DNA from: Sedimentisphaerales bacterium
Lineage (GTDB): Bacteria; Planctomycetota; Phycisphaerae; Sedimentisphaerales; UBA12454
Assembly: GCA_050014075.1 (NCBI GenBank)
Contig: JBEKEA010000002.1
Span: 26,860-90,859, forward strand
DNA: 64,000 bases
Direction: 5' to 3'
Shown: positions 2,403 to 52,188 of the stretch, piece by piece
Numbering within the stretch: the stretch's first letter is position 1
Layout: each line of letters opens with the position of its first letter
The notes under the pieces: model-generated
Seen by the model: only the letters and a program-made list of their open reading frames with translations
Told to the model about the DNA's origin: nothing
The model's database searches: none
Made by a program: the position numbers and the translations under genes

Positions 2403-3017
2403 TTATCTTATCTTAAACTCATTTAGGTCTGTCTCTAACAGAAAACTTCTAAACGGTTCGTATTTAAAAGATTCGAAATTCAGCGGCGCGTATTCTTCAT
2501 CGCCGGACTGCAAAACAAATTTATCGTGCGCGTAAGCCGCTAAAATCCTGTGCTCGGGACAATCAGGGACATAGAAACAATATCGTTTGCCATTGCTATC
2601 GTTAAATTGTGCTTTGCAATAAGTATTGCCGCTTTGCTTTGTGCAAATGCAAACGCCTGCAAAACCACTATTATTTCTGGCTTTTACATTCAGGGCGTTT
2701 TGCCGGTATGTGGCAATTCTCAAGTTCTCTCTTCGATTATCGAATGTGTCGCCGTTAATGTGGTCAACAACCATTCCAGCCGGCGGATTGGTAATGAAAC
2801 GCGCAAGCGATACGAGCCTTGGAGGACTGGAGCCGAGAAGAATGGCAGGATAACTATTTCCATTTCCGGAAAAACGCAAGCCGATTATACCTTCGGCATA
2901 TTTGCTGCGTTGAGTAGGGCGAACATTGAAAATCTGATAATAAATATCAGGGTCAACTTTGACAGGCCGGCCTGCAATCGTGAAAGTCAGAAAATCGGTT
3001 GCGCTTTGTGTGGACAT
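2403..3017 (-). CDS. HNH endonuclease with AP2-like DNA-binding domain (homing or phage-type)
   Basis: Contains VVDHINGDTFDNRRENLRIATYRQN (HNH_3-type H-N-N core), followed by SGFAGVCICTKQSGNTYCKAQFNDSNGKRYCFYV, which resembles AP2/ERF-type strands. Confidence 0.7.
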   Translation of the reverse strand: MSTQSATDFLTFTIAGRPVKVDPDIYYQIFNVRPTQRSKYAEGIIGLRFSGNGNSYPAILLGSSPPRLVSLARFITNPPAGMVVDHINGDTFDNRRENLRIATYRQNALNVKARNNSGFAGVCICTKQSGNTYCKAQFNDSNGKRYCFYVPDCPEHRILAAYAHDKFVLQSGDEEYAPLNFESFKYEPFRSFLLETDLNEFKIR

Positions 3018-3242: not shown

Positions 3243-5093
3243 ATGGTGTTGTTGAAAAAACAATCAGATAAATATTGGTTTATTTTCATCTGTGCGGTAA
3301 TGACGATTGTTACGCTGGCGGTTTATTGGCAGATGCGCCAATATGATTTTATCAGCCTTGACGATTTCGGTTATGTAAGGGACAATCCGAATGTTCGCTA
3401 CGGATTCAGCTGGGCAAACGTCGGATGGGCGTTTAGCAGCGGTTACGCCAGTAACTGGCATCCATTGACATGGCTTAGTCATATGCTGGACTGCGAGCTT
3501 TACGGAACTAACGCCGGTATGCATCATCTGACTAATTTATTCCTGCATATCGCAAATGTTCTTTTGCTTTTTGCCGTTCTTAGGGCAATGACTGGTGCGC
3601 TTTGGCCAAGTGCCTTCGTTGCCGCGCTCTTCGCATTGCATCCGCTGCACGTCGAGTCGGTAGCGTGGATATCGGAACGCAAGGATGTTCTGAGCACTTT
3701 TTTCGCTCTGCTGACAATGGCGGCATATCTGCGATATGTCAAAAAACCGAGTATCGCACGATACCTGCCGGCGTTGCTGCTTTTTGCGTTAGGACTTATG
3801 GCAAAGCCTATGCTGGTAACTTTGCCGTTTGTGCTGCTTCTGCTGGATTATTGGCCTCTGGAGCGGTTTAAGCCGGCAAATATGAAAACGGCGAAGCGCC
3901 TTGTTTTTGAAAAAGGACCTTTTTTTATATTGTCGGCAGCATCGAGTATTATTACTATTTTTGTTCAAAAAATAATCACGGTCAACCAGCTTCCTTTAAA
4001 TCTTCGCATCGCCAATACATTCATATCTTATGTCAAGTATATCGAAAAGATGATTTGGCCGGTCAACCTGGCGATATTTTATCCGCATTCCGATATGAAA
4101 TTATCAATGCCGCAGGCTTTTGCTTGTGCTTTACTGCTGCTGGGAATATCTGCCGGAGTGATTTGCCTTGCCCGGAAACGAAAATACCTTTTGTTCGGCT
4201 GGCTGTGGTATCTTGGAACTCTGGTTCCGGTAATTGGTCTGGTCCAGGTGGGAGGTCTGGCTATGGCCGACCGTTATACATATATGCCGCTTACAGGGCT
4301 GTTTATCATTATTGCATGGGGAGCTAACGACCTGCTGACAGGATGGAAGTATAAAAAAATTATACATGGCATATCAGCGACTATGATTCTTTTGGCATTG
4401 GCTGTCTGGACATTTTTTCAGGCAGGATACTGGCGCAACAGCTTAACCCTTTTTGAACATGCTATCGCGGTTACTGAGGATAATTATTTGGCGCATAAAT
4501 GTTTGGCCGATGCCCTGCACGGCCAGGATAAAAATGAGGAGGCAATCGAACATTACCGCAAGGCGATTGAAATCGGCGAAAACTATGCATCTGCGTATGT
4601 CGGCCTGGGTTCAGTCCTGATTGATACTGGGAAAACCGACCAGGCAGAGGAGTATCTTGCAAAAGCGATACAACTCGACCCGGAGTCGGGCAAGGCGTAT
4701 GGCGAGCTGGGACGGGCTATGGCGAAAAAAGGTAAAATGAGTGAGGCGGCTGCTCTTTTCGAAAAGGCCGCTAGGCTTGAGCCTTACTGGATTGACCCGA
4801 TTAATGCTCTTGCGTGGAATCTTGCGACTTATAATGATGCAAAAATCCGCAATCCCGTCAGGGCGGTCCAGTTGGCAAAACGTGCATGCGAACTTACAAA
4901 TTATGAAAACCCCGCTATAATGGATACGATGGCGGCGGCTTATGCAGCGGCGGGCGACTTCAGCAAAGCGATAGAAACTTGTGAAAAAGCTCTGGCATTA
5001 TGCAAATCCGCTCAGCAGAGCGAGCTTAAAAGGGAAATTGAAAATCGGCTGATTTTGTATAAAGCCGGCAAACCTTATATCGAGGCACAGTGA
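3243..5093 (+). CDS. TMTC/DUF1736-type GT-C glycosyltransferase (putative protein O-mannosyltransferase) with C-terminal TPR repeats, paralog 1
   Basis: 616 aa and multi-TM. First-loop DD motif (FISLDDFGYV), the motif HPLHVESVAWISERKDVLSTFF shared by all four paralogs, and a TPR-rich C-terminus. Confidence 0.8.
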   Translation: MVLLKKQSDKYWFIFICAVMTIVTLAVYWQMRQYDFISLDDFGYVRDNPNVRYGFSWANVGWAFSSGYASNWHPLTWLSHMLDCELYGTNAGMHHLTNLFLHIANVLLLFAVLRAMTGALWPSAFVAALFALHPLHVESVAWISERKDVLSTFFALLTMAAYLRYVKKPSIARYLPALLLFALGLMAKPMLVTLPFVLLLLDYWPLERFKPANMKTAKRLVFEKGPFFILSAASSIITIFVQKIITVNQLPLNLRIANTFISYVKYIEKMIWPVNLAIFYPHSDMKLSMPQAFACALLLLGISAGVICLARKRKYLLFGWLWYLGTLVPVIGLVQVGGLAMADRYTYMPLTGLFIIIAWGANDLLTGWKYKKIIHGISATMILLALAVWTFFQAGYWRNSLTLFEHAIAVTEDNYLAHKCLADALHGQDKNEEAIEHYRKAIEIGENYASAYVGLGSVLIDTGKTDQAEEYLAKAIQLDPESGKAYGELGRAMAKKGKMSEAAALFEKAARLEPYWIDPINALAWNLATYNDAKIRNPVRAVQLAKRACELTNYENPAIMDTMAAAYAAAGDFSKAIETCEKALALCKSAQQSELKREIENRLILYKAGKPYIEAQ

Positions 5094-5112: not shown

Positions 5113-6768
5113 ATGTATAAAACTACAAACAAATATCATATTCACCTGATTTATATATTGCTGACCATAGTTACTTTTATCGCTTTTGAACCGATAATGA
5201 GCAATGGATTCATAAGCTTCGATGATGATGCGTATATTTATCACAACAGCAATATTACTACCGGCCTGACGGGTAAAAATATCGGTTGGGCATTTACGAA
5301 TATTCATGCCAACAATTACCATCCGTTAACTTCGCTGTCGCATATGCTTGATTGTCAGTTTTTCAAGCTGGACGCCGGCGCTCATCATTCAATCAATTTG
5401 CTTTTACATATAGCCAATACGTTATTATTGTTTACGGTTTTGAGCAGAATGACAAAAAGAGCCTGGGCGAGCGCATTTGTCGCGGCACTTTTTGCGCTGC
5501 ATCCGCTTCACGTGGAATCTGTTGCCTGGGCGTCGGAGCGAAAAGACGTGCTCAGCACATTTTTCCTGATGCTCACTCTTCTGGCTTATGCAGGTTATGT
5601 AAAACGGCCGGGGGCAGGACGGTATTTATTAACGCTGGTTTTGTTCGTATTGGGTCTTTTGAGCAAGCAAATGCTTGTAACGGTGCCGTTTATTCTGCTG
5701 TTATTGGATTACTGGCCGCTTGAACGATTCAAGAAAACTAAACTCAGCAGTCTGATACTTGAGAAAATTCCATTTTTGGTTTTATCGGCGGCTTTGGGTA
5801 TTGTTACCGTTATCATTCAGCACAAAATGGGGCTGCTGAAGACCTTTTCAAACTATCCGTTTCAATGGCGAATCGAAAATGCCATTGTGTCATATATTAT
5901 ATATATCGAAAAAATGTTTTGGCCTGTCAACCTGGCAATATTTTATCCGCATCCGAAGGGCGACATCACTTTTTGGCAAGTTGCGGGGTCGCTGCTTATC
6001 CTTTTATTTATAACATTTCTGGCTATATGGAAAATACGCCGATGGCCTTATGTCGCTGTCGGCTGGTTATGGTTTTTGGTGACCCTCGTGCCGGTTATAG
6101 GAATAGTGCAAGTGGGCCTGCAGGGCTGGGCAGATAGATATACTTATGTTCCTTATATCGGGCTTTTTATTATTGCCTGGGTTGCCTGCGACCTGCCGGC
6201 TGGGGTTCAATATCAAAAAACGATTTTTTCGTTATCTGCCTGCATTATTCTTTTATCGCTGGGCGCTAAGACCTTTATTCAGACTCTGTATTGGCAAAAT
6301 AACATTATGTTATATTCTCATGCCGCGGAAGTTGTTGAAAATAACTGGTGGGCGTATAATTTTATGGGAAAAGCGTTAGCTTCTCAGGATGAATTTAATG
6401 AAGCGATTGTGCTGTTCGAAAAGTCTTTGGCAATCTACCCGCAAAATATCACAGTAAATTATGAAATGGGCAAAGCATTTTTGGGGGCGGGCGACGCGAA
6501 CGATGCTGTAAAATTGTATCAGCAGATGCTTGGTCCGCTGCCGGATAATCCAAATGAGCCGGTCAAAGTTGATGATAATCCTGTTCTTAAAGATTTGTAT
6601 GTAAACGCGAATATTAATCTTGCAATCGGATTATCGCGGCAGGGAAATCTTAAAGAATCGGCCAGGCGTTTCGAGGAAGCTTTGCGGGTTGCGCCTGACG
6701 CAGAGGCGGCACGCAAGGGGCTTGAAGATTTAAAGAAGCAGGCTAAGGATAATTCTTTATTGCCTTGA
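5113..6768 (+). CDS. TMTC/DUF1736-type GT-C glycosyltransferase with TPR repeats, paralog 2
   Basis: 551 aa with the same architecture (FISFDDDAYI; HPLHVESVAWASERKDVLSTFF). Its TGA stop (6766-6768) lies inside the TTGACA -35 box of the duplicated polA promoter. Confidence 0.8.
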   Translation: MYKTTNKYHIHLIYILLTIVTFIAFEPIMSNGFISFDDDAYIYHNSNITTGLTGKNIGWAFTNIHANNYHPLTSLSHMLDCQFFKLDAGAHHSINLLLHIANTLLLFTVLSRMTKRAWASAFVAALFALHPLHVESVAWASERKDVLSTFFLMLTLLAYAGYVKRPGAGRYLLTLVLFVLGLLSKQMLVTVPFILLLLDYWPLERFKKTKLSSLILEKIPFLVLSAALGIVTVIIQHKMGLLKTFSNYPFQWRIENAIVSYIIYIEKMFWPVNLAIFYPHPKGDITFWQVAGSLLILLFITFLAIWKIRRWPYVAVGWLWFLVTLVPVIGIVQVGLQGWADRYTYVPYIGLFIIAWVACDLPAGVQYQKTIFSLSACIILLSLGAKTFIQTLYWQNNIMLYSHAAEVVENNWWAYNFMGKALASQDEFNEAIVLFEKSLAIYPQNITVNYEMGKAFLGAGDANDAVKLYQQMLGPLPDNPNEPVKVDDNPVLKDLYVNANINLAIGLSRQGNLKESARRFEEALRVAPDAEAARKGLEDLKKQAKDNSLLP

Positions 6769-6793
6769 CATTACGCCATGCAATAAATAAATT
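6765..6793 (+). promoter_or_regulatory. duplicated polA-type promoter driving paralog 3
   Basis: TTGACA (6765-6770), 17 nt, TAAATT (6788-6793), then 7 nt to the ATG at 6801. It is near-identical in layout and sequence to the polA promoter at 10180-10208. Confidence 0.55.
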
Positions 6794-6800
6794 ATCAGCT

Positions 6801-8411
6801 ATGGCAAAAAATTTCTACAGAATTGACGGCCGCACACGTATCATTTTAATTTGTCTTGTCCTAACGTCAATGGTGTTAGCAGTTTTTGCCCAGGTACGCA
6901 GTCACGAATTTATTAATTACGACGACCCAGCCTACGTTACCGGAAATAATGCTGTCCTGAATGGTTTGTCCGCTGACAGTATCCTCTGGGCCTTTACGAC
7001 AGGTTGCTTCGGCAATTGGAATCCGCTGACGTGGATTTCATATATGCTGGACCGGCAGTTCTTCGGCTCAGGTCCCGCAGGATTTCACCTCACTAATCTT
7101 ATTCTCCATATCGCCAATGCCTTGATTCTATTTATTGTCTTAAAACAAATGACAAATGCGGTTTGGCAAAGCGCCTTCGTAGCGGCCCTGTTTGCGATTC
7201 ATCCTCTTCACGTCGAATCCGTCGCCTGGATTTCAGGCCGCAAGGATGTTCTGAGTACCTTTTTCGCTCTGCTGACAATGGCCGCATATCTGCGATATGT
7301 CAAAAAACCGGGTATCGCACGATACCTGCCGGCGCTGCTGCTTTTTGCGTTAGGCCTTATGGCAAAGCCAATGATTGTTACTTTGCCTTTTGCTTTTCTT
7401 CTGCTGGACTATTGGCCGCTGAATCGTATCAGAAATTTTAGCGGACAAAATATTTATCGTTTGATTTTGGAAAAAGTTCCCTTCCTTGTTTTATCCGTCG
7501 CTGCAGGTGTCGTCACCTATTATACACAAAAAAATATTGGAGCACTGCCGTCTTTTGCTGGGATGCCTCTGAAGTATCGTATTTTAAATGCCTTAATATC
7601 TTATGCAAAATATATTGGAAAAATGTTTATTCCGACCGGTCTCGCTCCGTTTTATCCTCACCCCCGTGAAGACGTATCGATTTTATACGCTCTGATTTCC
7701 GCCATTATCTTATTGGCTATAACTATTGTTGTTCTTTATTTCGTCAAAAATCGTCGGTATCTCCTTACGGGCTGGTTCTGGTATCTCGGAACGCTGATTC
7801 CGGTTCTCGGTATCATTCAGATTGGTTCGCATGCTATGGCCGATAGATATACTTATGTTCCACTGATTGGTTTATTTATAATGGTATCATTTGGCGGTGC
7901 TGAATTATTCGGCAAACTGCGATACGGCATCCGGATTTCCGCCGTCTCGGCTGCCGTTATAATTTTTGCACTGATGATTTGCACTTACAGGCAGGTGGGC
8001 TTTTGGCGCAACAGCATTACACTTTTTGAACACACCGCACAAGTTACTCAAAATAATTATTTGGCATACAGCAACCTTTCAAATGCGCTTGGTCAAAAAG
8101 GAGATTATGATGCCGCTATAAAAAACGGACTTGAGTCGCTGCGTATTCGGCCGAATTACGACACGCCGTGCTATAATCTTGGAATGGCTTATTATAGTAA
8201 AGGTGACACGGAAAAGGCAATTTACTACTGGACAGAGGCTCTAAAAATCAATCCGAAGTTTCCTGAGGCCAATTACGCTCTTGCGACAGCATTACTTAAT
8301 AAGAATGAGGTCGCACAGGCGATAAAATATCTTCAGGAGGAATTAAAAATAAATCCGAACCACACCGGCGCTAAAAAACTTCTCTCTAAACTAATATCCG
8401 CTACTCGGTAG
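6801..8411 (+). CDS. TMTC/DUF1736-type GT-C glycosyltransferase with TPR repeats, paralog 3 (N-terminus derived from polA 5' end)
   Basis: The ORF track begins at a TTG at 6765. The ATG at 6801 is preferred because 6757-6845 aligns with the polA promoter and first codons (MAKNFYRIDG vs MAKTLYIIDG). Family motif present: HPLHVESVAWISGRKDVLSTFF. Confidence 0.8.
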   Translation: MAKNFYRIDGRTRIILICLVLTSMVLAVFAQVRSHEFINYDDPAYVTGNNAVLNGLSADSILWAFTTGCFGNWNPLTWISYMLDRQFFGSGPAGFHLTNLILHIANALILFIVLKQMTNAVWQSAFVAALFAIHPLHVESVAWISGRKDVLSTFFALLTMAAYLRYVKKPGIARYLPALLLFALGLMAKPMIVTLPFAFLLLDYWPLNRIRNFSGQNIYRLILEKVPFLVLSVAAGVVTYYTQKNIGALPSFAGMPLKYRILNALISYAKYIGKMFIPTGLAPFYPHPREDVSILYALISAIILLAITIVVLYFVKNRRYLLTGWFWYLGTLIPVLGIIQIGSHAMADRYTYVPLIGLFIMVSFGGAELFGKLRYGIRISAVSAAVIIFALMICTYRQVGFWRNSITLFEHTAQVTQNNYLAYSNLSNALGQKGDYDAAIKNGLESLRIRPNYDTPCYNLGMAYYSKGDTEKAIYYWTEALKINPKFPEANYALATALLNKNEVAQAIKYLQEELKINPNHTGAKKLLSKLISATR

Positions 8412-8462
8412 AGATATATCTTCTTGACAGGAACGTTCTGCGGGGACTACTATATTGTAATT

Positions 8463-8576
8463 ATGGCAAAAACTTTATACATAATTGATGGTCACGCGCA
8501 CATTTACGCGGCATATTATGCGCCAATGAGTCAAAAACTTTCCAGCCCAATCGGCGAACCAAAAATTATCCCTTAA
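8463..8576 (+). pseudogene. orphan 5' remnant of polA (37 codons)
   Basis: Translates as MAKTLYIIDGHAHIYAAYYAPMSQKLSSPIGEPKIIP*. The first 29 residues are identical to PolA (10217...), and the DNA is about 90 percent identical by eye over about 90 nt. Its TAA stop ends 3 nt before the paralog-4 ATG. Confidence 0.85.
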
Positions 8577-8579
8577 ATA

Positions 8580-10136
8580 ATGAATAAAATATCAAGCAAA
8601 TATTATGTCCCTTTAATCTGCATTGCCCTGGCATTTATAAACCTGGCGGTTTACTTGCAAGTCCTCAATCACGATTTCATCGACTTTGATGATGACCTGT
8701 ATGTTACTAAAAATACCAATGTGCAATCCGGCCTGACCTTAAAAGACATAAAATGGGCCTTCACAACGAACCAGGCGTATAATTGGCATCCATTGACTTG
8801 GATATCGCATATGCTGGATTGCCAGCTTTATGGTTTAAATCCTGCCGGCCATCACTTCACAAATGTAATTTTTCACATAGCGAATACCTTATTTTTATTT
8901 CTGGTCTTCAAACGTATGACCGGTAACTTATGGCAAAGTGCTTTTGTTGCAGCCCTGTTTTCTCTGCACCCGCTTCATGTTGAATCAGTTGCCTGGGTCT
9001 CGGAGCGAAAAGACGTCCTCAGCACCTTTTTCTTGTTGCTCACTATATGGTTTTACATACGCTACACTCATCACCGACGGCTCGCTGATTACCTGCTGGT
9101 TATGCTTACCTTAGCGCTAGGCCTAATGGCCAAACAAATGCTGGTAACACTACCGTTTGTTCTGCTTCTATTAGACTATTGGCCTCTGCAGCGATTTACA
9201 TGGCCGTTAAAACAAAAAAAACATAAAGGTACATCTGCAACAACTTCACTTTCTCGCTGCTTCGTGGAGAAAGTGCCCTTTTTGGCTTTGTCTTTTATCG
9301 CAAGTCTAATCGTTCTTTATGTCCAATCAAAAGCTACGCTTGTAAGAAGCACAATTCAGATGCCAATCGTTTTTCGCATTGCAAATGCAATTCTTGCTTA
9401 TACAAAATATATCACAGAGATGTTCTGGCCCTTTCATTTGGGGATTCTTTATCCATACCCACAGACCAATCCTCAACTGTGGCAGGTTTTGACCGCTGGC
9501 TTACTGCTTCTGTGCATCACTGCCATAGTGTTCCGTTTGTCCCGCAACCGTCGCTGGCTCATAGTTGGATGGCTCTGGTACCTTGGAACCCTCGTTCCCG
9601 TAATCGGACTGGTGCAGGTCGGACTTCAGTCAATGGCTGACCGCTACACCTATGTCCCTTTCATTGGTCTATTCATCATCATTACATGGGGCGCCGCCGA
9701 ACTTATTGCAAAACTAAAATACAAGAATATTATCTTTGCAGCAGGTGCCGGGGTGGTGCTCCTGGTTTTATCGGTACTCACTTGGCTGCAACTGTCATAC
9801 TGGGAAAATAGCATTACATTGCTTGAGCATACCGTAGCTGTCACTGCCAACAATGATATTATACACTACAACCTGGGCATACTGCTGATAGAGCAAGGCA
9901 AGACTGACCAGGCCATTGAACATTGGCTTGAAGCCGTAAGAATCAGGCCTGAACAGCCGACAATTCACAATAATCTTGCGATTTTATTTGCTAAGCAGGG
10001 CAAAATCGAGGAGGCAATCCAACAATATCGCCAGGTGCTCAAATACAGACCTAACGATACCGTCGCATATAACCGCCTTAAAGCCCTCTTGGCCGCTCAA
10101 GAGAAATCTGCTGCCGAAGACAAAACTCCGAAATAA
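8580..10136 (+). CDS. TMTC/DUF1736-type GT-C glycosyltransferase with TPR repeats, paralog 4
   Basis: 518 aa, with FIDFDDDLYV, HPLHVESVAWVSERKDVLSTFF and a C-terminal TPR region. No SD is visible upstream; it abuts the polA-remnant ORF. Confidence 0.8.
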   Translation: MNKISSKYYVPLICIALAFINLAVYLQVLNHDFIDFDDDLYVTKNTNVQSGLTLKDIKWAFTTNQAYNWHPLTWISHMLDCQLYGLNPAGHHFTNVIFHIANTLFLFLVFKRMTGNLWQSAFVAALFSLHPLHVESVAWVSERKDVLSTFFLLLTIWFYIRYTHHRRLADYLLVMLTLALGLMAKQMLVTLPFVLLLLDYWPLQRFTWPLKQKKHKGTSATTSLSRCFVEKVPFLALSFIASLIVLYVQSKATLVRSTIQMPIVFRIANAILAYTKYITEMFWPFHLGILYPYPQTNPQLWQVLTAGLLLLCITAIVFRLSRNRRWLIVGWLWYLGTLVPVIGLVQVGLQSMADRYTYVPFIGLFIIITWGAAELIAKLKYKNIIFAAGAGVVLLVLSVLTWLQLSYWENSITLLEHTVAVTANNDIIHYNLGILLIEQGKTDQAIEHWLEAVRIRPEQPTIHNNLAILFAKQGKIEEAIQQYRQVLKYRPNDTVAYNRLKALLAAQEKSAAEDKTPK

Positions 10137-10179
10137 GTCAGTTAAGTTACACTTTGCAGGCAGCCCTTTGCTTATTACC

Positions 10180-10208
10180 TTGACATCGCACCGGACAATA
10201 AATAAAGT
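10180..10208 (+). promoter_or_regulatory. putative polA promoter, near-leaderless
   Basis: TTGACA (10180-10185), 17 nt, TAAAGT (10203-10208). Only 8 nt (TATCAGCT) separate the -10 box from the ATG at 10217, and there is no SD. Confidence 0.5.
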
Positions 10209-10216
10209 TATCAGCT

Positions 10217-12931
10217 ATGGCAAAAACCTTATATATAATTGACGGTCACGCACACATTTATGCGGCGTATTATGCGCCAATGAGTCAGAAACTTTCCAGC
10301 CCGACAGGTGAGCCTACCAAAGCCACATATATTTTCACCACGATGATTTTGAAACTTCTCGAAACAAAAAAGCCGGATATGCTCGTTGTCGCGATGGATT
10401 CCAAAGAGCCAAGTTTCCGTGCGGAAATTTACAAAGAATACAAGGCACACAGGCAGCCGATGCCTGAAGATATGCCAAAGCAGATAAATCGCATCGAGCA
10501 GATTCTTGAAGCAATGAATATCCCAATTATCCGCAAAAGCACATTCGAGGCCGACGACATAATCGGGACACTGGCGGCTAAAGCCGTAAAAGCCGGCATT
10601 GATACTTATATCTGCTCCAAAGACAAAGATATGCTCCAGCTTCTTGAGATTGGCGTTCATATATATGATGTAAAAACAGACGCTGTAACTGATGCCAAAT
10701 CATTTAAGCAGGAAACCGGCTTTGAGCCGCGGCAGTTTATCGATGTCCTTGCGCTGCAGGGCGATGCGAGCGATAACGTGCCCGGCGTTCCGGATGTCGG
10801 ACCAAAAACAGCCATTGAATGGATAAAACAATATGGCTCGCTTGAAGGCCTTTACGAACACGCCGATGAAATTAAAGGCAAACGCGGCGATAACCTGCGA
10901 AACTCAAAGGACATGGCGTTTCTCAGCAGAAAACTTGTAACAATAAATTGCGATATGCCCGTTGAAATCGACCAGAAGAATTTTGCCGTCAAAGAACCTG
11001 ATAAAGAAAAACTTACTGCGGTTTTCACAGGACTTGGCTTTAACAGGCTTTTAGGCCAGCTCAGCCTATCGCAGACCGAAACGCAAACTGAGGAAATTCG
11101 TAATAAAGACGGTTTCAACTCGATAAAAACTGTTAAACATAATTATCATTTAATTGACTCGCCTGAAAAACTCGATGATTTTTCCGCAAAGTTAAAAGAA
11201 CAAAAACTGTTTGCTGTCGATACCGAAACAACCTCAATATCTGCACATCGTGCCGAGCTTGTTGGAATAAGTATATCCTGGGAGGCTCATAACGCATATT
11301 ATATTGCCGTCAAAGGACCGATGGGGGCAAAATGCCTGGGTCTGTCGGTTGTGAAAGGGAAACTCGCGGCGATTTTCGCGGATGAAAAAATAAAAAAAAT
11401 CTGCCAGAACGCAAAATACGATATGATTGTTCTGCACAATTCCGATATGCCCGTTAAAGGCCTTGTATTCGATACTATGATAGCTTCCTATGTCCTCGAT
11501 GCCGAGAGAAGAAGTCATTCGCTCGATAATATGGCGTTGGATTTTCTTAACTATCGCAGCATTCCGATTTTCGACCTGATTGGCAAAGGCAAAAATCAAA
11601 TGAGCTTCGAGCTGGTCGATACGGCATCGGCCTGCGATTACTCCTGCGAAGACGCTGATTTTACATTTCAGCTTTATCACTACTTGGGCGAAAAACTTGA
11701 AAAAGAGCCAAAGCTAAAACATCTCTTCGAAAAAATTGAAATGCCTCTTGTCGAAGTCTTAACCACAATGGAGCTTAACGGCGTAAAAGTCGATATCCAG
11801 ATTCTCAGGCAGTTGTCAATTGAGATAAATAATCTGCTCGATCAGGTAACTGAAAAAATCCACAAACTTGCCGGCAGCGCATTCAATATAGATTCGCCCA
11901 AGCAGCTTTCCGATATATTATTCGACAAACTCGGCTTAAAATCAGTGCGAGAGGGCAAAACAGGCCATAGCACCGATGCCGACGTCCTCGAGGAACTGGC
12001 CGGCGAACATCCAATTATCGAACAGATTCTTCAGCAACGCCAGTTAAGCAAACTCAAGAATACTTATACTGACAAACTCGGTGCGCTGATAAATCCGCGA
12101 ACCGGCAGGGTGCACGCAAGTTTCAACCAGACAATTACCGCTACCGGCAGACTCAGTTCTTCCGACCCCAATTTGCAGAACATCCCCATTCGCACGGATA
12201 TAGGCAAAAAAATTCGTTCCGCGTTCGTGCCGGAGAAAAAAACAGATAAAATCGTCAGCCTCGACTATTCGCAGATTGAGCTTCGTATGGTTGCGCATTT
12301 CAGCGGCGACAAGGAATTAAAAAAAGCTTTCGAACAGGATAAGGACATTCACAGTTTTGTCGCCTCGCAGATTTACAACGTGGACATAAAAGACGTAACG
12401 AGCGAAATGCGGTCACGCTGCAAGGCAGTCAATTTCGGCCTGATTTACGGGCAGGGAGCCTTTGGCTTGAGCCGGACTACGGGTATGAACGTCGGCGAGT
12501 CGAAAAAATTCATCGAAGAATATTTCGCAAAATACAGCTCAATTCAGAAATTTAAAAAAGATGCGATAGAGACAGCCATAAAAACCGGCTATGCTGAAAC
12601 CATTTGCGGCAGAAGGAGAACAATTACCGGCCTGGACAGCAAAAACGGCAATGTACGTTCGCAGGCGGAAAGACTGGTGATAAATACGCTGGTTCAGGGT
12701 TCTGCCGCCGATTTGATTAAAATCGCGATGATAACGATTCAGAAAAAAATTGAGAACGAAAACCTGCCTGCGAAAATGATTTTACAGATTCACGATGAGC
12801 TGGTTTTTGAAGCTGACGGGAAACAGGCAAAAAAACTCGCTGATATTTTCGGCGATGAAATGACCGGCGCGATAAAACTTAATGTTCCGCTCAAAGTCGA
12901 TATTACAATTGGCGATAGCTGGCTCGGATAA
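10217..12931 (+). CDS. polA: DNA polymerase I
   Basis: 904 aa with three regions: a 5'-3' exonuclease N-terminus (LYIIDGHAHIYAAYYA), a 3'-5' exonuclease region (FAVDTETTS), and polymerase motifs (DYSQIELRMVAH, QVHDELVFE-like QIHDELVFE). Confidence 0.97.
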   Translation: MAKTLYIIDGHAHIYAAYYAPMSQKLSSPTGEPTKATYIFTTMILKLLETKKPDMLVVAMDSKEPSFRAEIYKEYKAHRQPMPEDMPKQINRIEQILEAMNIPIIRKSTFEADDIIGTLAAKAVKAGIDTYICSKDKDMLQLLEIGVHIYDVKTDAVTDAKSFKQETGFEPRQFIDVLALQGDASDNVPGVPDVGPKTAIEWIKQYGSLEGLYEHADEIKGKRGDNLRNSKDMAFLSRKLVTINCDMPVEIDQKNFAVKEPDKEKLTAVFTGLGFNRLLGQLSLSQTETQTEEIRNKDGFNSIKTVKHNYHLIDSPEKLDDFSAKLKEQKLFAVDTETTSISAHRAELVGISISWEAHNAYYIAVKGPMGAKCLGLSVVKGKLAAIFADEKIKKICQNAKYDMIVLHNSDMPVKGLVFDTMIASYVLDAERRSHSLDNMALDFLNYRSIPIFDLIGKGKNQMSFELVDTASACDYSCEDADFTFQLYHYLGEKLEKEPKLKHLFEKIEMPLVEVLTTMELNGVKVDIQILRQLSIEINNLLDQVTEKIHKLAGSAFNIDSPKQLSDILFDKLGLKSVREGKTGHSTDADVLEELAGEHPIIEQILQQRQLSKLKNTYTDKLGALINPRTGRVHASFNQTITATGRLSSSDPNLQNIPIRTDIGKKIRSAFVPEKKTDKIVSLDYSQIELRMVAHFSGDKELKKAFEQDKDIHSFVASQIYNVDIKDVTSEMRSRCKAVNFGLIYGQGAFGLSRTTGMNVGESKKFIEEYFAKYSSIQKFKKDAIETAIKTGYAETICGRRRTITGLDSKNGNVRSQAERLVINTLVQGSAADLIKIAMITIQKKIENENLPAKMILQIHDELVFEADGKQAKKLADIFGDEMTGAIKLNVPLKVDITIGDSWLG

Positions 12932-15487: not shown

Positions 15488-15519
15488 AAGAAGTTTCACC
15501 CGCGAGGGTGAAACTTCTT
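15488..15519. terminator. perfect 14-bp-stem palindrome, candidate bidirectional terminator overlapping the xerD stop
   Basis: AAGAAGTTTCACCC (15488-15501), loop GCGA, GGGTGAAACTTCTT (15506-15519). It lies between the convergent MFS and xerD genes and encodes the last xerD codons (KKFHPRG). Confidence 0.6.
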
Positions 15520-16431
15520 ATGAATACTCCGCAGTCTTTCCATGTCAACGTGAGTATATATCTGCGTTGTCGCAATATCGACGTGCCCGAGCATCTCCTG
15601 CACGCTGCGCAAATCCGCTCCGCCGCTTAAAAGATGAGTCGCAAAGCAATGCCGAAGAGTATGCGTCGTCATCTGCTTTGGTAATCCCGCCCGGCAGGCG
15701 TATTTTTTTACAATTCGCCAGAGTTCAATTCTGCTAAGTGCTCTGCCCGTTCGCGAAAGGAACAGGGCGTCGCCGCTGCAAGGCTTGGCCAGTTTCCCTC
15801 GAAATTGCTCGATATATTGTTCAATAGCCCCAATCGCGGCATGGTTGAGAGGAATTACCCGTTCCTTTTTACCTTTGCCCAGGCATCGGACATATCCGAT
15901 TTTAAGATTCGCATCGCCAATTTTCAGCCCCGCGACTTCGCTCGCCCTTGCGCCGGTAGCGTAAAGTAATTCGAGAAGGGCACGGTCTCTGAAATAATAA
16001 GGCTCTTTCTCATCCGGACAGTCCATCAGTTTTGTAACCTGGTCTTTGCTGCAAACAATTGGAAGTTTCTGCCAAAGCTTTGGGCTTTCAAGAAATACTG
16101 TTAAATCGTCCTTGATGTGTCCCATCATTTTGCAGTAGCGCAGAAACATTTTCAGCGCGACTACCGAGCGGTTAATCGAGGCTTCTGCTTTATTTTGGCG
16201 GGCAAGGACCTTTGCGTAATCATAAAACTCAGCTGTAGTAATCTTATCAGGCTTCTTAATCCCTTTCGAAAGGCAAAATATGACAAATTCCCGCAGGTCT
16301 CTGCCATAGCCGAGGATGGTGTTTTCGCTAAGGCCGGCTTCGACGGTCAGGTAATTTAGGAATGCCAGCACCGTCTTTCCAAACGGCTCAGCATCTAAAA
16401 CTGTATTAAGATTCTGCACTTGTAACGACAT
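15496..16431 (-). CDS. xerD: tyrosine site-specific recombinase, XerD/XerC-like
   Basis: 311 aa with an N-terminal SAM-like core-binding domain (FLNYLTVEAGLSENTILGYGRDLREF) and a catalytic region (HTLRHCFATHLLSGGADLRSVQEMLGHVDIATTQIYTHV). Confidence 0.85.
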   Translation of the reverse strand: MSLQVQNLNTVLDAEPFGKTVLAFLNYLTVEAGLSENTILGYGRDLREFVIFCLSKGIKKPDKITTAEFYDYAKVLARQNKAEASINRSVVALKMFLRYCKMMGHIKDDLTVFLESPKLWQKLPIVCSKDQVTKLMDCPDEKEPYYFRDRALLELLYATGARASEVAGLKIGDANLKIGYVRCLGKGKKERVIPLNHAAIGAIEQYIEQFRGKLAKPCSGDALFLSRTGRALSRIELWRIVKKYACRAGLPKQMTTHTLRHCFATHLLSGGADLRSVQEMLGHVDIATTQIYTHVDMERLRSIHKKFHPRG

Positions 16432-50311: not shown

Positions 50312-51256
50312 TTATTTCAAGCTGCCGATAAGTTCGGCAACAGCGGTAATATTTTGCCGCCGCAGGTAGTCCTTAATCCCCTGGATAATTTTAACCGCAC
50401 AATCAGGATAGATAAACCCGCCTGTGCCTATCGTAACGGCTGTCGCGCCGGCGATGATAAACTCAACAGCGTCGGATGCGGTTCTAATTCCTCCGCCGCC
50501 GATTATAGGAACGCCTGCCGGTTTGGCTACTTCATTGTAAACTTTATTCACAAGATAAACCGCAATCGGCTTTATGGCAGGGCCGGAAAGGCCGCCGGTG
50601 CGATTGGCCAGAACAGGCCGTTTGGTCTCAATATCGATAACCATCGCGGTAAAAGTATTAACAAGACTCAGGGCATCTGCGCCGCATTCAACCGCTGCGC
50701 GGGCAATTGCGCTGATGTCAGTAACGGACGGCGTAAGTTTGACAATGAGGATTTTGTCGCGGACGACTTTTTTTACCTCGGTTGTAATCTGGCGGACAAG
50801 AGCAGGGTCTGTGCCGAAGGTTATGCCGCCTTGTTTGACGTTGGGACAACTTATATTTAATTCCAGACCTGCTATTCGGCGGCATTGCGAAAGTTTGTCG
50901 GCAACGGCGACGTATTCATCGATGGTCTGGCCGGCGATATTTACAAAAAACGGAGTTTTATATCGTTCCATCATCGGGACTTTTTCCTGAATGAATTTTT
51001 CGACGCCGATGTTCGCAAGGCCGATAGCGTTTAGCATTCCCGAATCGGTTTCGACAATCCGCGGGACATCATTGCCAAGCCGAGGTTTGATGGTGATGCT
51101 TTTTGTTATAAAAGCGCCGAGCTGATTTATATCAAGAAAATCATCGAGCTCATCGACGTAGCCGCACGTTCCGGATGCGGTAATCAGCGGGTTAATCAGG
51201 CTGACTTTGCCGACATTTACTGAAAGATTAATATCGTTGTTTTTCTTTATTCCCAT
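50312..51256 (-). CDS. pyrD: dihydroorotate dehydrogenase, class 1B catalytic subunit
   Basis: Contains NPLITASGTCGY, GLELNISCPN and GGLSGPAIKPIA. Confidence 0.93.
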   Translation of the reverse strand: MGIKKNNDINLSVNVGKVSLINPLITASGTCGYVDELDDFLDINQLGAFITKSITIKPRLGNDVPRIVETDSGMLNAIGLANIGVEKFIQEKVPMMERYKTPFFVNIAGQTIDEYVAVADKLSQCRRIAGLELNISCPNVKQGGITFGTDPALVRQITTEVKKVVRDKILIVKLTPSVTDISAIARAAVECGADALSLVNTFTAMVIDIETKRPVLANRTGGLSGPAIKPIAVYLVNKVYNEVAKPAGVPIIGGGGIRTASDAVEFIIAGATAVTIGTGGFIYPDCAVKIIQGIKDYLRRQNITAVAELIGSLK

Positions 51257-52188
51257 ACGACCTCATCAGACCAGAAAACAGGGCCGTCCTTACAGCAGAG
51301 CTTGTATATAGTGTTTCCGCTCGCTTTATCGCGGCATTTAACCGCGCAGCTTTGGCATAAGCCTGTTCCGCAGGCCATCCTGCGTTCAAGGCTGACCTGG
51401 CAGGGGAGTTTGAACTGCGAACTAATCGCAGTGGTCGCGGAAAGCATCGCTTCAGGGCCGCAGGCGTAAACTATCGTGTCTTTGCCGTCAGGTTTATTTT
51501 TAGTAAGCCAGTTTTCTAAAGATTGCGAAATAAATCCCTTAGTGCCGGCAGTACCATCGTCTGTGCTTATAAATGTTTTGATATTAAGCCGGCTAAATTC
51601 GCCGAGGGTGATATCTGTTTCTTTCTTTAGCTTGCTCGTTTCAATATCGAAAAATGCCAGACCCGCCAATGTCTTTGCGCCGACAAAAGCAATTAACTCG
51701 ATAGGACATTGTTTTTTCAAGACCTTGGCAAGATGTATAAGTGGGGGAGCGCCCATTCCGCCGGCGACAAGTAACGCAAGTTTTTTATTTTCCGGCAATT
51801 TAAAGCCGCTGCCAAGCGGACCAATGAAATTAACAGAGTCTCCGATTTTGAGAGTTTTCATTCTCAATGTCGCAGGGCCCAGAACGCAATAAAGAATTTC
51901 CACGACAGTAGTATCATTATTGCAATCGATGTCGGCAAAGCTGAAAGGTCTTCGCAGAATAATATCTCTTTGAGCCGAGTCCCAAAGCTGGCCAGGAATT
52001 AACTTCTCAGACGGCAGGGCAAGTTTTGAAACATCAATTTCAATAAATTGGCCGGCAGATGCGTGTGAAAATGGGATGTTAGCCTTTTTTTCAAGTTCGA
52101 GAGTTAAACGGCAAAATTTATCGCCCAGGCTGCGATTCATTAAGACTGTCGCGTTGAAGATTCCTTTTTTTGACGGTGAGTCTGTCAT
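51247..52188 (-). CDS. pyrK: dihydroorotate dehydrogenase electron-transfer subunit
   Basis: FAD/NAD-binding fold with a C-terminal 2Fe-2S motif MACGTGLCQSCAV. Overlaps the pyrD start. Confidence 0.88.
   Translation of the reverse strand: MTDSPSKKGIFNATVLMNRSLGDKFCRLTLELEKKANIPFSHASAGQFIEIDVSKLALPSEKLIPGQLWDSAQRDIILRRPFSFADIDCNNDTTVVEILYCVLGPATLRMKTLKIGDSVNFIGPLGSGFKLPENKKLALLVAGGMGAPPLIHLAKVLKKQCPIELIAFVGAKTLAGLAFFDIETSKLKKETDITLGEFSRLNIKTFISTDDGTAGTKGFISQSLENWLTKNKPDGKDTIVYACGPEAMLSATTAISSQFKLPCQVSLERRMACGTGLCQSCAVKCRDKASGNTIYKLCCKDGPVFWSDEVVWE

Follow-up and report, generated by a model that had tools for sequence, protein, structure and literature searches.

Among variable loci of bacteria, the cps locus, located between dexB and aliA, and the O-antigen locus, located between galF and gnd, are swapped by recombination in their flanks. 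Displacement arrays that presumably arise via homology-facilitated illegitimate recombination are known as well, for example, those of C-terminal displacement, with orphan 3' ends, in Rhs and contact-dependent inhibition (CDI) genes and those of the effector-immunity genes belonging to V. cholerae's type VI secretion system (T6SS) (Kirchberger et al. 2017, PMC5361080). Genomic islands and prophages that target dusA integrate into its 5' end, which they replace (Farrugia et al. 2015, PMC4482086), and promoter capture occurs at the junctions of tandem duplications and deletions (PMC11111574). Here we analyze a 64-kb stretch of DNA (hereafter, the window) from a contig of a Sedimentisphaerales (Phycisphaerae) metagenome-assembled genome (MAG), the closest relatives of which are other Sedimentisphaerales/Phycisphaerae MAGs. 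According to the open reading frame (ORF) map and a Pfam scan, four genes, denoted P1 to P4, are encoded in tandem on the + strand of the window, directly before polA, the gene for DNA polymerase I. The 5' end of polA is present three times, in polA itself, at the start of P3 (copy B), and between P3 and P4 (copy C). Our favored interpretation, to which we assign a probability of about 65%, is that membrane glycosyltransferase-like modules inserted at the polA start and displaced the old promoter and 5' end of polA, which stayed behind as stubs. Related genomes and contigs are designated below by L numbers.

The three segments are found at the positions given in a preliminary description of this DNA. 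Copy C (8463-8561) and the polA start (10217-10315) are identical in 86 of 99 nt; as noted in that description, the first 29 codons of copy C are unchanged from PolA at the protein level, and the comparison of codons 1-33 yields 11 synonymous differences and a single non-synonymous codon (T30I). Copy B, taken together with its promoter part (6757-6842), matches 10172-10258 with ~80% identity, including a 19-nt exact block, TTATCAGCTATGGCAAAAA. Both similarities are far stronger than those of shuffled sequence, with a local-alignment z of 24 (copy B) and 36 (copy C). The promoter had been described as triplicated along with the coding region, which is correct for the coding 5' end but not for the promoter: elements of one sequence family (prom2) precede copy B and polA, whereas copy C is preceded by another promoter-like element (prom1), TTGACA-18-TACTAT, at 8424-8453. 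Could prom2 simply be a generic promoter consensus? This was ruled out because the motif CCTTGACAT-N9-CAATAAATAAA is limited to two sites in the 64 kb, 6763 and 10178, with a chance expectation of zero. The stop codon of P2 (TGA, 6766-6768) lies, as previously pointed out, inside the -35 hexamer of the first of these promoters (TTGACA, 6765-6770). Paralogs located upstream of a prom2 copy read into the promoter and end in ..LLP* or ..LLH* at the TGA of the -35 TTGACA (..PLLP*/..PLLH* at 8300-8320 in L021, 8340-8356 in L002, and ~9940-9960 in L011, and ..SLLP* at 6757-6768 in the window), and therefore, the promoter also codes for the last residues of the upstream protein.

An assembly artefact, that is, a chimeric metagenome contig joined via short repeats, has to be considered given that the window comes from a MAG and that assemblers can be misled by repeats. 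The chance of this is close to nil: exact repeats shared by the copies do not exceed ~20 nt, which is less than the assembly k; both P4 junctions are present at 100% identity in an independently assembled Logan contig (L147), and the junctions are repeated in the ENA, NCBI, and JGI copies; copy B was also found in L141 and L145, which come from other samples; and homologous architectures exist in L141, L145, and L148.

Copy C, which the preliminary description took to be a duplicate of the present polA promoter region, is instead orthologous to the functional start of polA in sister genomes. The sequence comprising the P3 3' end, the next 50 nt including prom1, and copy C is colinear with P3, prom1, and the real polA start of L002, L141, L145, L142, and L140, and in all these genomes, prom1 is orthologous to the promoter of the working polA. 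The closest genome found, L141 (96% PolA identity), has the order P1, P2, copy B fused to P3, prom1, polA, which is the arrangement of the window minus P4 and the second prom2. Because copy C with prom1 corresponds to the working polA start of the sister genomes, P4 with a fresh prom2 appears to have been inserted into polA at codon 33. A P3-polA junction was recovered for six genomes (five of these with sequence), of which the window alone shows this insertion.

With L141 and L002 and more remote PolA genes as references for polarization, copy C has 9 synonymous private changes and 1 non-synonymous one (T30I), and the 5' end of the working polA of the window has three or four, all synonymous. 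Because at least 9 synonymous changes out of 10 would be improbable under neutrality (P ~1e-5 to 1e-4 for an unconstrained relic), copy C seems to have belonged to a working polA during almost the entire time since it separated; selection on a peptide encoded by copy C is the less likely alternative. An imported 5' segment in the polA of the window was considered and dropped given that, in sliding identity comparisons with L002, L141, and L021, the dip in the first 35-75 codons is also found between L141 and L002.

The polA-derived part of copy C belongs to a 37-codon ORF, the TAA stop of which is followed by ATA and then by the ATG of P4. A homologous 37-codon polA stub ORF, with a matching tail and a stop likewise 3 nt before P4, is present in L148. 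This ORF is likely to be a leader ORF for P4. Selection on the ORF itself, as a leader peptide or a coupling ORF controlling P4, would be compatible with insertion of modules at the polA start; the synonymous-only divergence would in this case result from purifying selection on the peptide instead of a recent origin. Several features speak for it: the length, the stop 3 nt before P4, and the TAAATAATG junction are kept between the window and L148 despite the saturated synonymous divergence of the stubs, the copy C branch shows the 9:1 ratio of synonymous to non-synonymous changes, and there is no Shine-Dalgarno (SD)-like motif in front of P4. We nevertheless consider such selection unlikely because conservation does not extend to the last six residues ahead of the stop (EPKIIP vs SSELIS), the six polA-derived residues that differ are at positions that vary among real PolA, which fits descent from a working polA, and P4 in L021 and L150 lacks such an ORF.

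With respect to prom1, the 3' ends of L143 and L144 contain a native-start P3-family gene beside a methyltransferase, followed by degenerate prom1-like sequence and an ATG that does not belong to polA (ATGCCCCTGCTT...), where the contigs stop. Prom1 may originally derive from such another locus.

Copy B is an integral part of P3. A search with P3 identified orthologues at 60-72% identity, and seven ortholog clusters, from different samples, share a polA-like N-terminus, MAK[ND][FL]Y.IDGR..I, to be compared with MAKTLYIIDGHAHI in PolA. Taken jointly, these seven N-termini (MAKDFYRIDGRAHI, MIKNLYIINGRSRV, MIKNLYIIDDRARV, MVKDFYKIDGRARI, MAKDFYKIDGRAHI, MAKDFYKIDGRARI, and MAKNRKIIDGQIRI) restore almost the full PolA sequence. 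Because seven ortholog clusters carry the fused start, the polA::P3 fusion is old and fixed. Thus, the claim of the preliminary description that P3 captured the promoter, start codon, and N-terminus of polA is upheld, with the correction that the captured stretch comprises 14 codons, with the ATG at 6801, rather than ~13. In that description, orthologs carrying this N-terminus away from polA would have counted against the claim; the fused P3 gene is directly upstream of polA wherever the context was recovered (in the case of P0002, as gene order only). A metagenome scan with P3 returned paralogs at no more than 52% identity and no orthologues.

The P3 protein of the window starts with MAKNFYRIDGRTRI, where H11 and H13 of PolA are replaced by R. 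The same two replacements are found in all fused versions, and position 7 is often K or R. In native members of the family, a K/R-rich tail precedes the first membrane helix; we infer that the H-to-R changes are adaptive in the sense that they would recreate such a positively charged tail. The distant members of the P3 group in L142 and L140 have the native start of the family, MDNILIKHRNFW or MGNILTKYRRFW. In L142, a prom2-like promoter is located directly ahead of the native-start P3, and in L140, the native-start P3 comes after an L006-type promoter and polA codons 2-29, AGG having taken the place of the polA ATG. N-terminal capture is therefore represented by several stages: the native start (L142 and L140), a stub before the native start (L140), and the fused start (window, L141, L145, and L002). 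The promoter of copy B is nearly identical in L141 and L145; in L002, 29 nt (the spacer and the -10) are deleted between the -35 and the GCT before the ATG, and the fused N-terminus is kept.

The body of P3 is heterogeneous. Compared with L141, its core (6886-7800) is 46-70% identical, as against 84-99% for the flanks, and the number of synonymous substitutions per synonymous site (dS) is 0.78 for P3, concentrated in 6886-7800, as against 0.17-0.30 for P1, P2, and polA. It appears that the internal segment that corresponds to the membrane-domain core was replaced and that the gene is a mosaic. The possibility that copy C and P3 form one diverged foreign block was rejected because the divergence of P3 is confined to the core, and the 3' part of P3, prom1, and copy C are ordinary. 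A short identity dip was observed in P1, at 3829-3920.

The history of P4 is discordant with that of the genomic backbone. The dS between the window and L021 is 0.17 for P4 and 1.28 for polA, the respective values for L150 are 0.24 and 1.33, and for L148, 0.32 and saturated (63% amino acid identity of PolA), within an overall range of 0.17-0.41 for P4 vs ~1.3 to saturated for polA. Because the dS of P4 is far below that of polA between the same genomes, P4 is laterally exchanged; in all of these genomes, it is located at the polA start. The block of high identity begins exactly at the P4 ATG (8580), except in L148, where the edge lies ~20 nt further left, and ends at 10163 (L021), ~10165 (L148), or ~10226 (L150), so that in L150 it takes in a prom2 that is 95% identical to that of the window.

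To the left of P4, the contexts differ. In L150, P4 starts 8 nt after a P2-type gene. In L021, the genome's own prom2 (52/53 nt identical to its own polA promoter) together with ATGGGA is joined to the P4 ATG, yielding the N-terminus MGMNKIS. The stub of L148 is preceded by prom2, and its polA-derived part differs from that of the window with a dS of 1.76, that is, is as diverged as the host genes; therefore, this stub seems to be largely host-derived, the junction being shared. The tail before P4 in the window (..ATTATCCCTTAAATA ATG) is similar to the ends (last codons and stop) of P2-type genes that are native neighbors of P4 or end beside polA, as in L150 (..GTTGCGCCTTAGATAAAGCA ATG) and L003 (..ATCGCCCCTTAA). 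We tentatively attribute the primary junction between the stub and P4 to an ancestral duplication of a unit that would have started at the P2 end, included P4, and reached polA codon 33, in line with the period of 1754 nt.

To the right of P4, an 18-mer, TAAGTTACACTTTGCAGG, is invariant in the window, L021, L148, and L150-L152, where synonymous sites of P4 differ by 15-30%, and is confined to P4-carrying loci. The P4 flank yielded neither a significant fold (z = 0.5) nor inverted repeats or an attC-like structure, and the region matched no Rfam family. The polA promoter of L148 (9560-9637) looks like a hybrid, with a prom2-type upstream part and -35 (TTTGCTTATGGCCTTGACA) and a prom1-like -10 (GGCTACTATATTTTGCTCG), which suggests crossovers within the promoter itself.

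Two short, independent Logan contigs, L147 (equivalent to window 8514-10282) and L149 (from an L148-type locus), extend from the interior of the polA stub to the 5' interior of the true polA. L147 exceeds the length of a single repeat period (1754 nt) by exactly the 15 nt of its terminal overlap, TATTATGCGCCAATG. These contig ends could reflect strain heterogeneity, a circular or tandem form or excision via the stubs, or an assembler effect. Stub recombination, if ongoing, should yield a deletion product, GCA-TATTATGCGCCAATGAGTCA-GAAAC, and a circle or tandem product, GCG-TATTATGCGCCAATGAGTCA-AAAAC.

The paralogs themselves are ancient. In the neighbor-joining tree of the membrane domain, four orthogroups (P1/Px, P2, P3, and P4) were identified, each with members from several genomes, and the P2/P3, P3/P4, and P1/P4 pairs, which are 43-50% identical (48% for P3/P4), belong to these separate, old orthogroups. 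The preliminary description proposed repeated tandem duplication or insertion; an origin of the polA copies as by-products of local tandem duplications that made the four paralogs cannot be maintained because the orthogroups are older than the species splits. Under such a scenario, a unit extending from the interior of a paralog to the interior of polA would have been doubled head to tail twice within the window lineage, giving rise to both the paralogs and the polA 5' copies. The stub-gene-stub-gene-polA layout, with periods of 1662 and 1754 nt, is indeed array-like, the native upstream neighbor of P4 in L150, a P2-type gene, has an end similar to the tail before P4, as a duplication junction would produce, and promoter capture by such events is well documented (PMC11111574). 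Nevertheless, we find this origin improbable: apart from the divergence of P3 and P4, copy C is flanked by prom1 and P3, with no second P4 or prom2, P4 is far more similar to its counterparts in distant genomes than the respective backbones are, and an in situ relic should have accumulated mostly non-synonymous changes, not the 9:1 excess of synonymous ones.

The number of paralogs beside polA in relatives varies from 0 to at least 5. The part of the preliminary description that named the polA 5' end as the recombination junction is borne out, and further stub junctions are found in L021, L140, and L148. A dedicated site-specific cassette system at the polA start, either integron-like or integrase-mediated in the manner of dusA islands, would be a natural candidate for such recurrence. 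It would fit repeated insertion at one gene start across lineages down to 63% PolA identity, the identical junction between the stub and P4 in the window and L148, and the invariant 18-mer at the right end of the P4 module, and the dusA islands, with replacement of the 5' end and a new promoter, provide a precedent (PMC4482086). The junctions, however, are at differing positions (5' UTR, that is, the untranslated region, and codons 2, 14, 29, and 33), the modules are single genes, the inserts contain no integrase, the P4 flank lacks the inverted repeats or attC-like fold (z = 0.5 for folding, as given above), and the sole nearby recombinase is the conserved XerD, located several kb away and present also in insertion-free genomes. 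We therefore view a dedicated system as very unlikely.

Other irregularities were observed at the same location in relatives. The sole paralog before polA in L011 (8381-9967) is chimeric: the N-terminal domain falls in the P2 group, and the final ~95 residues show 61% identity to the C-terminus of P1 (..AGKPYIKPLLP*). L014, a more distant relative, contains a 38-nt exact direct repeat just upstream of polA (9754-9791 and 9933-9970), which may be another scar.

The three promoter-like sites (6765, 8424, and 10180) each match the consensus in 10 of 12 positions, and the -10 hexamer ends 7, 9, and 8 nt before the ATG of P3, copy C, and polA, respectively. Prom2 is a widespread polA promoter in the order (L003, L005, L008, L010, L011, L019, L020, L021, and L150). 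No SD-like motif was detected ahead of the ATGs of P3, copy C, and polA, nor before P4, and no terminator-like sites in the intergenic gaps between the array genes. Judging by the spacing, the transcripts from all three promoters are probably leaderless. Because such mRNAs would start at the ATG, the promoter and the ATG would be captured, and would have to move, as one unit. Many other gene starts in the window, for example, those of 51247-52188 (- strand) and 15496-16431 (- strand), show a comparable pattern: only about one-fourth of the genes with clear upstream gaps have an SD-like motif, and in some others, a -35/-10 pair likewise ends ~10 nt before the ATG. These observations would fit an organism in which leaderless or SD-independent initiation is frequent. 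A literature search for leaderless transcription in Planctomycetes gave nothing relevant.

Comparison of the loci bears out the orthology of the stub, the age of the P3 fusion, the lateral spread of P4, and the recurrence of the junctions in other lineages, and it suggests the following history. The array upstream of polA would be variable, growing and changing through the entry of pre-existing paralog modules at the polA start. With each entry, the promoter at the right side of the module would take over polA, and the old promoter, ATG, and first codons would stay at the left as a stub. The takeover by the promoter of the module, or by the promoter together with a 5' end, would keep polA intact. 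In an old event, P3 and prom1 would have entered a prom2-driven polA after codon 14, and the copy B stub would then have come to serve P3 as promoter and start codon and as its cytoplasmic N-terminal tail. In a later event, a P4 module, in which P4 was preceded by the final few codons and stop of a gene once located upstream and was followed by a 27-nt flank and prom2, would have entered the prom1-driven polA after codon 33, leaving copy C behind. The primary junctions would have formed by rare illegitimate recombination, at a tandem-duplication junction or through homology-facilitated illegitimate recombination, and subsequent spread would have proceeded by ordinary homologous double crossover, with the stub or promoter as the left arm and the promoter or polA as the right arm. 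Double-crossover spread would account for the shared junctions with host-like stubs, the differing left promoters, the sharp edges of identity, and the synonymous-only divergence. In the resulting array, the prom2 of copy B would drive P3, prom1 the stub ORF, and the prom2 next to polA would drive polA, and P4 could be translated by termination-reinitiation coupled to the stub ORF.

Several points weigh against this history. The donor of the P4-prom2 segment of the window lies outside the sampled genomes, the exact crossover points have no assigned place, and the junctions have diverged too far for microhomology to be read. Nothing in the polA 5' end of the window points specifically to a foreign origin; between L141 and L002, too, the first 35-75 codons are the part that diverges most. 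The homology of the 18-nt tail to P2-type gene ends amounts to ~9 of 12 matching bases. P4 might have been lost in several sisters via recombination between copy C and polA, although this would take several losses vs one gain. Finally, promoter activity, leaderless starts, and coupling are predicted from consensus matches and spacing only.

A farther-reaching possibility, which we regard as doubtful, is that the polA start is a landing pad and that the modules are self-propagating cassettes that use the stub of the target as a homology arm and bring a replacement promoter, forming a recombinase-free, integron-like array. If this were the case, insertion would be feasible into any recognizable polA, even at 63% protein identity, with immediate expression from the captured leaderless promoter and ATG, and active excision or amplification could occur via the stub repeats, at which the period-length contigs L147 and L149 hint.

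The features of the locus are compiled in the table below.

Table 1. Coordinates of the genes, stubs, and promoter elements around the polA start (positions in the window).
Feature	Position	Strand	Characteristics
HNH_3 gene	2403-3017	opposite strand	upstream of P1
P1	3243-5093	+	paralog, polytopic N-terminal domain and C-terminal TPR
P2	5113-6768	+	PMT_2-like membrane domain and TPR; ends ..SLLP*
Copy B, promoter part	6757-6800	+	prom2 type; -35 TTGACA 6765-6770; -10 TAAATT 6788-6793
Copy B, coding part	6801-6842	+	polA codons 1-14, in-frame with P3
P3	6801-8411	+	536 aa, polA::P3 fusion gene
Prom1	8424-8462	+	apparent former polA promoter; -35 TTGACA 8424-8429; -10 TACTAT 8448-8453
Copy C, 37-codon ORF	8463-8576	+	polA codons 1-33 (8463-8561), KIIP tail, TAA 8574-8576
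P4	8580-10136	+	518 aa, laterally exchanged cargo of the module
Conserved 3' flank of the P4 module	10137-10163	+	18-mer TAAGTTACACTTTGCAGG at 10143-10160
Prom2	10172-10216	+	predicted present polA promoter; -35 10180-10185; -10 TAAAGT 10203-10208
polA	10217-12931	+	DNA polymerase I, 904 aa, intact, all PolA domains
XerD	15496-16431	-	TIGR02225, 333.7 bits

The 3' neighbors of polA are YdjC, DUF2905, an MFS transporter, and XerD. All four paralogs clearly match TPR families of Pfam. PMT_2 exceeds the Pfam cut-off in P4 alone (33.8 vs 26.1 bits), is sub-threshold in P3 (24.5 bits) and P1 (20.3 bits), and has no match in P2 at E<1e-3; in the source annotations, the proteins of relatives appear as "protein O-mannosyl-transferase", "glycosyltransferase family 39", or plain "TPR protein". 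Given these weak PMT_2 matches and annotations, we denote P1-P4 as glycosyltransferase-like candidates for the GT-C (PMT_2) and TPR ("TMTC-like") type. Searches of NCBIfam and PDB with P3 and P4 retrieved TPR matches only and gave no functional clue. At a distance from the array, short direct repeats based on GTTATC (GTTATCTGTTATCAGTTATC...) are clustered at 429-571, upstream of a gene for a WG-repeat protein (708-1763).

If the proposed history is correct, the locus constitutes a record, in natural genomes, of a conserved gene whose promoter was repeatedly swapped and whose discarded promoter/start units were recycled for newly arrived genes, and the P3 group provides a stepwise record of a fixed in-frame N-terminal capture. 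The spread of a single gene with short flanks of the target gene between distant lineages bears on the surface-glycosylation repertoires of uncultured Planctomycetota. For annotators, the 37-codon ORF and the odd N-terminus of P3 are real features rather than gene-calling errors.

Displacement and promoter capture are already known; what appears to be new here is the displacement, without an integrase and with varying junctions, of the 5' end of a housekeeping gene unrelated to the modules, with stubs that are positioned to act as expression signals. With the cps and O-antigen loci, the array shares hypervariable glycosyltransferase-type genes beside a housekeeping gene and mosaic pieces, but in the window, the cassettes incorporate duplicated pieces of the flanking gene, whereas the flanks of the cps and O-antigen loci are merely adjacent. 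As in dusA islands, the inserts land in the first codons, supply a new 5' end with promoter-like sequence, and leave a remnant 5' end; these islands, however, are 20-100 kb long and use a tyrosine integrase and a fixed att site, whereas in the window, single 1.6-kb genes are inserted at varying junctions without an integrase. None was found beside the array or in the inserts, and the only candidate nearby is the conserved XerD, which is present irrespective of insertions.

The likeness to captures at duplication junctions is that a promoterless or newcomer gene gains expression from the promoter of a neighbor by an illegitimate joint, with the first codons fused in-frame: the junctions of the window fuse the promoter and 5' codons of the downstream polA to P3 (codons 1-14) and to the tail with P4 (codons 1-33). 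The units beside these junctions are not recent mutual copies, being 43-50% identical members of old orthogroups. Known duplication captures are recent and of laboratory scale, whereas the fusion in the window is fixed across at least 7 ortholog clusters; unlike in those captures, the donor, polA, appears to be kept intact by the replacement promoter that travels with the module, and the site is reused.

The Rhs/CDI and T6SS arrays share with the window the entry of modules beside a conserved anchor, displacement of the previous end, and orphan fragments that are left behind, and, under the interpretation proposed here, the swapping of modules between strains by homologous recombination without an integrase. 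The respective traits of the window are the polA anchor, the stubs at 6757-6842 and 8424-8576, and the discordant phylogeny of the modules (P4 and the mosaic core of P3). In the Rhs/CDI and T6SS arrays, the cargo consists of toxin/immunity pairs, and it is the variable gene's own 3' toxin end that is displaced, whereas the cargo of the window comprises glycosyltransferase-like paralogs, and the displaced part is the 5' end of the housekeeping polA, with its promoter and start codon. Unlike the dead orphans of the known arrays, the stubs in the window are placed as expression signals for the inserted genes.

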